DNA of 64,000 nt from Escherichia coli. Its GTDB lineage: Bacteria; Pseudomonadota; Gammaproteobacteria; Enterobacterales; Enterobacteriaceae. Made by a program: the position numbers. The stretch lies in assembly GCF_016026235.1 (NCBI RefSeq), contig NZ_CP065613.1; one strand, 5' to 3'. This document shows, piece after piece, positions 39,801 through 42,800 of this stretch (within the stretch, counting starts at the first letter, position 1; every line of letters starts with the position of its first letter).

Positions 39801-42800
39801 CTGACGAGGTACTGGCCCTGCGATTGCCTGAAAACGGCTCACAACTGCACCATTCATAATCACATCGCATAAACCACAGACCGGACTGACTCCGGAAAAA
39901 CAGAGGCCCGCCCCCGGGCCTCCCCGGATTCATCCGTTTCCCTGTTCAGCCTGACAGCACGCCCCGGCGGCCGGATGACAGACTCCGCTTCGGTAAGCAA
40001 AGCGGTCTTCTGTGATTCCGCCAGTTGCGGCTTATTCATTACTCAACGTCAAACGCCCGAATTGAAGCCAAATCATCCAGACCGCTCAGCTCCTCTTTCA
40101 TTTCACGCTGACGGCGATAAATCTCATCGTTGCGATCGACCTGCGCCTGCACCATTGCTGCCGCCAGTTCTTCCAGTTCCGGCATCGACAGTTTCACCTG
40201 CTGATTATCGGCATCGCTCCACGCCATATGTGTTTGTGCTGTGACAGATTTTGCCAGCATGACTACCGGGGACAGGCGGCCCAGTGAGTCGGGGCCAGCA
40301 TTCCAGATACGACCGTTCCATTCAAACGTGAACGGCTTCGCCTCCTGTTCTGTGCGCCATGCTTCAATTTCCTGACGTCTGGCCTCTCTGGCCGCTTCCA
40401 GCATTTCTGGTGTCACAGTGAATGGGGCTATCTCACCCCATTTGCCACTTTGCAGTTCCTGCCAGATTTGCTGACCCGTCGGTGCGACATCATCAGCGGT
40501 GGCTGTGTAGGGAACTGCCTGGTCCCTGTCGTCAAAAAAAACGTCACAGTCTACTGCGCCACTTTCGGTATAACGGGGATTAATGATTTTTTTAATTTCC
40601 ACGGTGCATTCCTCACGATGTGCGAATAAAAAGCCCGGGCATTGCGCCAGAGACATGTGCATCCGGCACCCCGGACAGGGCGCAATATGACCCCGGTAAT
40701 GAATGCTCTGAACATCCCGTAATGAAAAATTGTGGGTATGCTATATGCGTTCCGGTGGGAGTACTGGGCACTGAAATCCCCACCGGTCCCAGTCGTGAGC
40801 CTCTGTATGACTGCCCCCTGACAAGTCTGATGACTTTATCACCGTCAGCTTCTCCCTGGTACGCAGCAATAATCAGCCCGCCAATGTCAGGGTCTCCCCA
40901 TCTGTTGCAGACAGAGCTCGCCACGATTCTGTAAATAATATCTTCTGTGGTTATATTTATTTTCACCCAGTCAGTCAGTCTGGATATGGGCCAGTAGCAG
41001 TAGCGGGTGTGATAAATGGGGCCGTTAATGCCGTAAAAAGTAAGGGATTTGGCTCTGTACCGCGGTTCTGTTGTCTCAGGGCGTGCATCAGTCCACCGGA
41101 TGCTGAGCACCCCTTCAAACCGTGTGTCGGGTATGATGCCCAGGCGGCCAGCAACGGAATACTCACCTGGCAGCGCATTCCTTACCCAGGCCAGGAAATC
41201 ACTCTTAGTGTCAAAACGGATAACATCTTCAGGCAGAAAAGCACACCCAAAGCCGAATGCGCCGGGTATCGCCAGACGGCCTTTTGTCCGATCGTAAATG
41301 TCGCTCTGTGCTTCCATCGTGGCCGCACTTTTCAGCCCCAGATTATCCCGGGACTTCTGTTGTGCCTTTTCGCCTGCTGCTGCGATTTCAGACAGATGGT
41401 TAGCCGTTTTCAGAGTGCCGGTCAGCGCAGCATCAATGTCATTTTTGGCCTGTTCTGCTGCGCGGGCATAACCTGCGGCTGCCTGTGCACGCTGACCGGA
41501 TAAGACGGCGTTTTTCCCCGTGCTTTTCACGTCTTCCGCAGTGGCCTTTCTGTCCTCTGCAGTGGCAACTGCATCCTGTCTGGCATTCTCCGCAAAACGT
41601 TGTGCATCATCACGGGCCGTTGCGGCTGCCGCCACATCCTGCGCCGTCTGCTGTGCGTTTCCGGCTGCGCTCCCGGCACTCTGCTGCGCCTGCGCCACCA
41701 TTTCCTCAAAGCGCTTCATCACCTCCGGACGTAAATCACCATCCTTTGGTGCATTCAGAAACGCGTTCAGTGTCCCCGGTGCATCAGTCGGTGCCACATC
41801 AATATCCCCGACACGGGTTGGCTGCCAGCCGTTACAGTGAAGCGCAACCTCGTAATACCCCGGCTCAGCCTCAATCACATAAGCACCGTTATTGTCCGTC
41901 ACGCAAGTGGCAACAACGTGTGCCACAACGGTCGGACTGGTTCTTCTGGCCCGCAGTTCAATCGCACAATTTACGACAGGTTTACCCGCCCCATCTTTCA
42001 GTACACCTGAAATCTTTACTGCCATATTCACCCCACAAAAAGCCCGCCTGAAACGGCGGGCTGTCATAACACTGTGTTACCTGGCTAATCAGAATTTATA
42101 ACCGACACCCACGATGAAACTGTTGGTACGCCAGTCACCGCTGCCGGAGCCTTCATAAGCGACGTCAACGGCCACGGATTCGGTCGGGTTAAACTGCACG
42201 CCAGCTCCCCACGCCAGAGACGTGTTGCTGTGGCGACCGTCATCACTTCCGGTCAGCACATCGTGCGTTTTCCCCTTGTTGTCAGTTACGCGGAGATAAT
42301 CCCCGGAGAAGGTCGACACACGGCTGTAAGCCACGCCCGCCATCGCATACGCGCTGAACCATTCATTCACGCGCACAGACGGCCCCGCCATCACGCTGAA
42401 CCAGCGGTTACGCACGGAATCCTCATGCCAGCAGGTATCGCTGTAATGCGTTTTTTGCTCATCTTCAGCGTTGGCATAGCTGAATGACGTCACCAGCCCC
42501 AGCGTGTCCGTAAACTCATAACGGTATTTCACGTTAATCCCGTTCAGATCATCACTGCCGGGAGCGTTCGTCGAGGCATGAAGATACCCCGCGCTCAGCG
42601 TGGACTGATGTTCAGACGCCCATGCAGGCGCACCGGATACAGCCAGACAGATGGCTGCGGACAAAATGGCAGCATAAAGTTTACGCATAATTACCTCTCG
42701 CTTTTCTGCAATAAAAAAGGCACCATTTCTGGTGCCCGTATCTGGGTTATAAAATTCAGCTGATACTGATACCTGCTGTGGATTTCTTCATCACAACAAC

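Follow-up and report, generated by a model that had tools for sequence, protein, structure and literature searches.

An ordinary mosaic side tail fibre of a lambda-like Escherichia coli prophage ends in a recurrent tip family without a curated domain model

What kind of tip does a prophage side tail fibre carry when its C-terminal part resembles no recognised receptor-binding domain, and can such a tip bear on host range? This question is raised by a fibre gene on the minus strand of the window studied here, a 64,000-nucleotide stretch of the E. coli contig NZ_CP065613.1 (assembly GCF_016026235.1). The first-pass annotation of the sequence had placed a side tail fibre at 40613-42025, had described its N-terminal part as a lambdoid shaft and had left about 200 C-terminal residues unrecognised. 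The placement was exact and coincides with the RefSeq call in an enteroinvasive E. coli (EIEC) genome. We find this reading essentially right. The gene lies in a defective lambda-like prophage of a Shigella/EIEC chromosome and encodes a mosaic side tail fibre of an ordinary kind; its tip belongs to a recurrent family, common in the prophages of E. coli and Shigella, that has no curated domain model, structure or known receptor.

The full minus-strand open reading frame (ORF; 40613..42067) gives 484 aa when counted from its first ATG. The conserved start MAVKISGVL at 42025 leads to a protein of 470 aa, which is also what RefSeq calls in the near-identical copy of an EIEC O121 genome. In a DNA alignment of 2029 nt that covers the fibre gene and the gene directly downstream, the window and the EIEC copy differ by 13 substitutions and no indels; the fibre ORF is therefore intact. 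The order J, lom and fibre, all on the minus strand, is that of lambda, and the genes upstream in the prophage include the tape measure, major tail, portal and terminase genes.

The protein's N-terminal end is lambdoid. It carries a PF08400 (PfN) anchor domain, and residues 1-92 align (E 3e-22) with the N-terminal chain of lambda Stf, gpStfN, in the Ur-lambda virion structure (PDB 9e7m). In that structure, gpStfN (1-91) forms collar domains that touch gpV and gpM, followed by a flexible linker and then a trimeric coiled coil (PMC12617516). The anchor of our fibre is followed by a low-complexity segment rich in Ala and Gln, with 39 Ala and 14 Gln per 145 residues between residues ~96 and 240. 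In a prophage fibre of E. coli O157, the corresponding PfN-PCoil fragment behaves as a trimeric, alpha-helical rod, as determined by size-exclusion chromatography with multi-angle laser light scattering, circular dichroism and electron microscopy (PMC3368898). Because this homologous fragment is trimeric and alpha-helical, the Ala/Gln-rich segment is probably a trimeric alpha-helical coiled coil. The lambdoid assignment of the N-terminus thus holds, and what had been called a shaft is better divided into an anchor and a probable coiled coil.

The unrecognised part of the fibre comprises residues 243-470, that is, 228 aa rather than about 200, and consists of two sub-domains, D1 and D2; the peptide quoted in the first-pass annotation lies at residues 338-383. 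No Pfam or NCBIfam model matched residues 243-470, and no PDB sequence matched them, either as a single sequence or as a profile of 41 sequences. PDB sequence searches with the whole fibre, the tip profile, the downstream protein (termed the chaperone below) and its profile returned only the lambda Stf collar and a weak match to the N-terminus of a collar spike. Likewise, NCBIfam gave nothing meaningful for fibre, tip or chaperone. The whole fibre matches phrog_2636 ("tail fiber protein") end to end (E 4.9e-213), and its last 200 aa occupy positions 361-567 of the 568 in this profile (E 6e-77). The description of the C-terminus as lacking a well-characterised fibre tip domain was therefore borne out.

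An exhaustive HMMER scan of 1.84 billion representatives revealed how widespread the tip is. The family contains 94 clusters at 50% identity, 74 of them with E < 1e-10, and the module is nearly always found at the extreme C-terminus of proteins of 200-1300 aa. The family was visible only by this exhaustive search; a word-indexed protein search gave mainly contig-end fragments. Its most conserved stretch, with the lowest column entropy in the 41-sequence alignment, is a junction motif, SDIYDRTxGRLAxPGAFGFG, located at the boundary between shaft and tip. Family homology begins at this motif in fibres whose upstream parts are unrelated. D1 is present once or, in longer family members (P0035, P0036, P0039 and others), in two to three tandem copies. 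With one exception (P0083, which stops short), the hits that match D2 have it at the C-terminus or beside it. Within D2, the core motifs that rank next after the junction motif in conservation are GGLILAAY, RGxxxxGSRL, LPGxYxALSG and, at the C-terminus, GLFxR; the loops between them are variable. For D2 of the window the corresponding strings are GGLIIAAY, RGxxxxGSRL, LPGSYxALSG and GLFIR. Mean identity is 36% for D2 and 35% for D1. At residues 293-299 (~41130-41160), inside D1, our fibre reads AGRLGIIPDT where several Shigella copies have AGPYGIIIPDT, a difference of one codon. A local frameshift was considered as the cause and rejected, as the EIEC copy reads identically here and no indel appears in the DNA alignment. 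We also considered whether "PfC2", from a 2012 paper on collagen-like fibres, might be an older name of this module; phage Stx2-86, whose gp21 is a fibre with a non-PfC C-terminus in the same paper, was not among our tblastn hits.

We built an AlphaFold2 (AF2) monomer model of the tip on the 41-sequence alignment. The model has a mean predicted local distance difference test score (pLDDT) of 89.9, with no segment below 50, and shows two alpha/beta sub-domains. D1 is predicted as an alpha/beta domain with pLDDT mostly above 90, and D2 as beta-rich. A Foldseek search of this confident model against the PDB returned nothing with E < 0.001. The best match was to the two C-terminal domains of phage K gp144 (E 8e-3).

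By tblastn, the tip is 29-34% identical to the C-termini of fibres in phiP27 (L56), Rac-SA53 (tail3), SerU-LTIIb (stf), Av-05 and relatives, and an Actinobacillus phage; the first half of the tip alone was found in the jumbo phage Goslar. The mosaicism that the first-pass annotation had considered typical is well illustrated by a prophage fibre of Shiga toxin-producing E. coli (STEC; WP_065225719, 696 aa). Its first ~100 N-terminal residues are ~80% identical to those of our fibre, as read off the alignment, and they are joined to another allele of our tip family, with 31% identity (hhalign E 2e-53). Among 5426 complete E. coli genomes, 9 carry the exact tip allele of the window, with a maximum of 7 places in a single genome. 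We examined one of these nine genomes (EIEC), in which one copy follows the same aspS-yecD-dinI-ipaHd site as in the window. A second copy (NZ_CP119441.1, 2084373-2094056) places the same allele on a 421-aa fibre, behind a Caudo_TAP-type assembly gene, in a myovirus-type remnant flanked by IS1 and IS66 and located beside sitCD and the sit operon. Since this second copy lies in a myovirus-type remnant, the allele has moved between tail types.

The gene directly downstream of the fibre encodes a DUF4376 protein. Its PGAP-style start is the ATG at 40662, and the upstream ATG used for RefSeq relatives makes the gene overlap the fibre by 50 nt. The GTG at 40602 is preceded by a Shine-Dalgarno sequence, GAGGA, 7 nt upstream, and homologues start at the matching position. 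Given these homologue starts and the GAGGA, the product is likely 187 aa long and free of overlap with the fibre. In all the loci that we checked, the gene directly after the fibre encodes a DUF4376 protein; these loci are Av-05, phiP27, Rac-SA53, two EIEC loci, three further prophage families (of siphovirus and of P2/Mu-like myovirus types) and one STEC prophage. The comparison of fibre/chaperone pairs among prophages that had been suggested for this gene showed the same kind of partner throughout. The partners are 71-80% identical across E. coli (1867 clusters at 90% identity), while tips average ~35%.

The role of DUF4376 proteins has been addressed in other phages. The receptor-binding protein gp26 of Alteromonas phage V22 binds cells only if it is co-expressed with gp27 (PMC7289586). 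In a follow-up study, Alteromonas fibres were modelled as one or more knobs, which can be duplicated, and a head that is capped by a trimer of the DUF4376 protein (PMC10579305). Similarly, the H-fibre of a Campylobacter prophage needs a downstream DUF4376 gene (PMC7882524). Our chaperone profile is homologous to V22 gp27 (hhalign 91%, E 1e-6, 149 columns). The structure model of the chaperone retrieves neither TfaMu nor intramolecular chaperone domains, and the predicted fold is unlike the S74 type; the top structural matches are prefoldins, which may only reflect helical-hairpin geometry. The DUF4376 protein of the window is probably a tail-fibre assembly chaperone or cap, on which the fibre would depend.

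Our fibre shares with lambda Stf/Tfa, as present in Ur-lambda, the position after J and lom, the homologous PF08400 collar, an Ala-rich and probably coiled-coil shaft and a chaperone gene immediately downstream. However, our fibre is much shorter than lambda Stf, which has 774 aa. The distal domain of lambda Stf is gp37-like and binds OmpC, whereas our tip is unrelated to it, and residues 243-470 gave no lambda or T4 gp37-like match in Pfam or the PDB. The chaperone also differs, being DUF4376 (PF14301) instead of Caudo_TAP/Tfa (PF02413). V22 gp26/gp27 and A5 gp8/gp9 (PMC7289586, PMC10579305) show the same arrangement of duplicable knob(s), distal head and a DUF4376 gene directly downstream; the chaperones are homologous and both modules move between morphologically different phages. 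The fibre fits the described kind of knob-head fibre with a DUF4376 chaperone. Its tip profile had no detectable homology to V22 gp26: hhalign gave a probability of 1.1%, and the alignment covered no more than a 27-column junction motif. The neck and junction region LKSAAT...GRLAIPGAFGFG (41246-41335) has a weak, non-significant echo in LGSAATKDVG...GAFGVG of V22 gp26 (L010, 9251-10357), which may represent a structural neck common to both fibres or else a joint of recombination.

A further comparison is with fibres that carry the D1-D2 tip family itself: phiP27 L56/L57, Rac-SA53 tail3/tail4, SerU-LTIIb stf, Av-05 gp76/gp77 and STEC WP_065225719. Each of the E. coli prophage fibres of this family that we checked has a DUF4376 partner, and most have a PF08400 N-terminus. 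They differ from our fibre in their alleles, shaft lengths and inserts (Phage_fiber_2 repeats and extra D1 copies), and some are found on myovirus-type tails. We found no published receptor or structure for them in the literature. The collagen-like fibres EPclA/B of enterohaemorrhagic E. coli prophages (PfN-PCoil-Col-PfC; PMC3368898) share the PfN anchor and the Ala-rich PCoil, but our fibre ends in the D1-D2 module instead of collagen repeats and PfC. In agreement, Pfam gave no match to PF01391 or PF06820 (PfC) in the fibre, and no Gly-X-Y run is visible in the sequence.

According to our model, to which we assign a probability of about 80%, the gene encodes a Stf-type side tail fibre of a lambda-like siphovirus prophage. 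The fibre would be a homotrimer, clamped to the tail tip by its N-terminal PF08400 domains in the manner of Ur-lambda, with the Ala/Gln-rich segment serving as a short coiled-coil shaft. Of the C-terminal 228 residues, D1 would make up a knob and D2 a distal head. A cell-surface receptor would be bound by variable loops that sit on a conserved, beta-rich core, so that a first adsorption, fast and reversible, would precede the engagement of J with its own receptor. We propose that the DUF4376 protein nucleates trimerisation at the C-terminus of the fibre and may remain there transiently as a cap.

The state of the rest of the prophage determines what such a fibre can do at present. The gene for the ClpP-like prohead protease/major-capsid fusion (54838-56932, minus strand) is divided among three ORFs, each in a frame of its own. 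Compared with an intact 675-aa relative (95% nucleotide identity), it lacks single bases at two places, near 56198 and near 55564, and has an insertion of 33 nt that keeps the frame. Because this gene is frameshifted, the prophage cannot build heads. The tape-measure gene (48785-51691, minus strand) has a 1-nt deletion near 48822, close to its 3' end, and a 9-nt deletion compared to an intact relative. The annotation of the EIEC copy lists J and the tape-measure gene as pseudogenes, the latter as frameshifted. Judged from these lesions, the prophage is defective. With the capsid and tape-measure genes of the prophage frameshifted, the fibre cannot act by itself in this genome and cannot currently set the host range of a virion made by this element.

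These same lesions, together with the many fragmentary homologues from Shigella in databases, are what one would expect if the fibre ORF were a functionless relic, intact only because decay has not yet arrived and without a current role even as a recombination donor. We consider this possible, if doubtful. The fibre and chaperone genes are free of indels across independent Shigella/EIEC copies, with the few substitutions given above, and the tip allele persists at up to seven places in a genome. Moreover, infecting lambda has been shown to recombine with the stf-tfa regions of defective prophages (PMC3945230), and therefore the fibre cassette could still be donated. The relic reading concerns present use and leaves the identity of the protein as a side tail fibre untouched. 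We conclude that the realistic present role of the fibre could be that of a recombination reservoir of a host-range module, and that any effect on host range is potential and would come through recombination only.

A second alternative concerns the division of labour within the tip. D2 could be an intramolecular chaperone or assembly domain, possibly cleaved after folding, with specificity residing in D1 or in a partner protein. A chaperone domain that can be removed does form the end of many phage fibres (reviewed in PMC10579305), and the strong conservation of the GLFxR end and of several D2 core motifs is expected of an assembly element. On the other hand, the conserved strands of D2 are separated by long, variable loops, D2 diverges no more slowly than D1, and a separate, dedicated chaperone gene is present at every locus checked. 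Pfam gave no match to Peptidase_S74 or to another chaperone domain at E up to 0.1, and D2 is predicted to be beta-rich, not the alpha-helical bundle of intramolecular chaperones. We therefore regard this alternative as improbable. Least probable of all is an enzymatic depolymerase or esterase instead of a simple adhesin, since the matches behind this idea span only 86-106 residues of ~580-aa proteins, the module has just 228 aa, the AF2 model contains no beta-helix and no catalytic family was matched in Pfam or NCBIfam.

At the end of the prophage, just past the chaperone gene, lies an ipaH-family effector gene that adjoins a dinI-like gene (37259-37507), yecD and aspS (Table 1). The GC content is 0.36-0.42 around ipaH, with a low-GC flank at 37500-39000. 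Effectors are typically placed after tail-fibre genes (PMC3530523). We considered whether ipaH always accompanies the tip allele and rejected this, as the second EIEC copy has no ipaH nearby; the link is thus not strict. In genomes of Escherichia sp. (L006, L007, 6396-8497), a fibre of the same tip family and its DUF4376 gene are directly followed by a cdtABC-like cytolethal distending toxin operon, another virulence cargo placed after the fibre/DUF4376 cassette.

Table 1. Positions of the side tail fibre gene, its domains and neighbouring genes in the window
Feature	Position	Strand	Basis
Side tail fibre gene, 470 aa + stop	40613..42025	-	ORF; same start in RefSeq EIEC copy; phrog_2636
PfN / PF08400 anchor ("collar") domain, residues 1-131	41633..42025	-	PF08400 "Prophage tail fibre N-terminal", E 3e-48
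Ala/Gln-rich low-complexity shaft ("PCoil"), residues ~132-242	41300..41632	-	Composition
Junction motif SDIYDRTKGRLAIPGAFGFG, shaft/tip boundary, residues 241-260	41246..41305	-	Lowest column entropy, 41-sequence alignment
Sub-domain D1, "knob", residues 243-~365	40931..41299	-	Tandem-copy pattern; AF2 model
Sub-domain D2, distal "head", presumed receptor-binding tip, residues ~366-470	40616..40930	-	Position in hits; motifs
DUF4376 protein, 187 aa, probable tail-fibre assembly chaperone/cap	40039..40602	-	PF14301, E 1e-16
lom (Ail/Lom outer-membrane protein)	42089..42688	-	PF06316, E 2e-125
J, central tail-tip fibre, 1157 aa, uninterrupted ORF	42756..46229	-	ORF; gpJ annotation in syntenic EIEC locus
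ipaH-family type III secretion system E3 ligase effector, 583 aa	38108..39859	+	Syntenic EIEC gene annotated ipaHd

A joint reading of these observations is tentative and, taken as a whole, rather unlikely to be right in every part. D1-D2 may represent a distinct class of receptor-binding head without a solved relative, and the prevailing side-fibre tip of lambdoid and Mu/P2-like prophages of E. coli and Shigella. All these tips might rely for folding on a single, nearly invariant DUF4376 chaperone of prefoldin shape, which would read the conserved core strands and not the variable loops, so that the tips could be swapped freely behind the junction motif without co-evolution of the chaperone. 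The allele described here, confined to Shigella/EIEC-type genomes, might in that case be a marker of the phage lineage by which ipaH effectors were delivered.

For this genome nothing important changes; as cargo, the neighbouring ipaH effector is of more biological note than the fibre. The direct significance of the finding is modest: a very common prophage tail-fibre tip of E. coli and Shigella is still without a Pfam model, a structure or a known receptor. The tip comes as a cassette of two genes in which the chaperone is highly conserved and the junction motif sharply so. It is therefore a practical candidate for engineered host-range swaps, for instance in chimeras of lambda Stf, and structure determination would be a reasonable aim as well.
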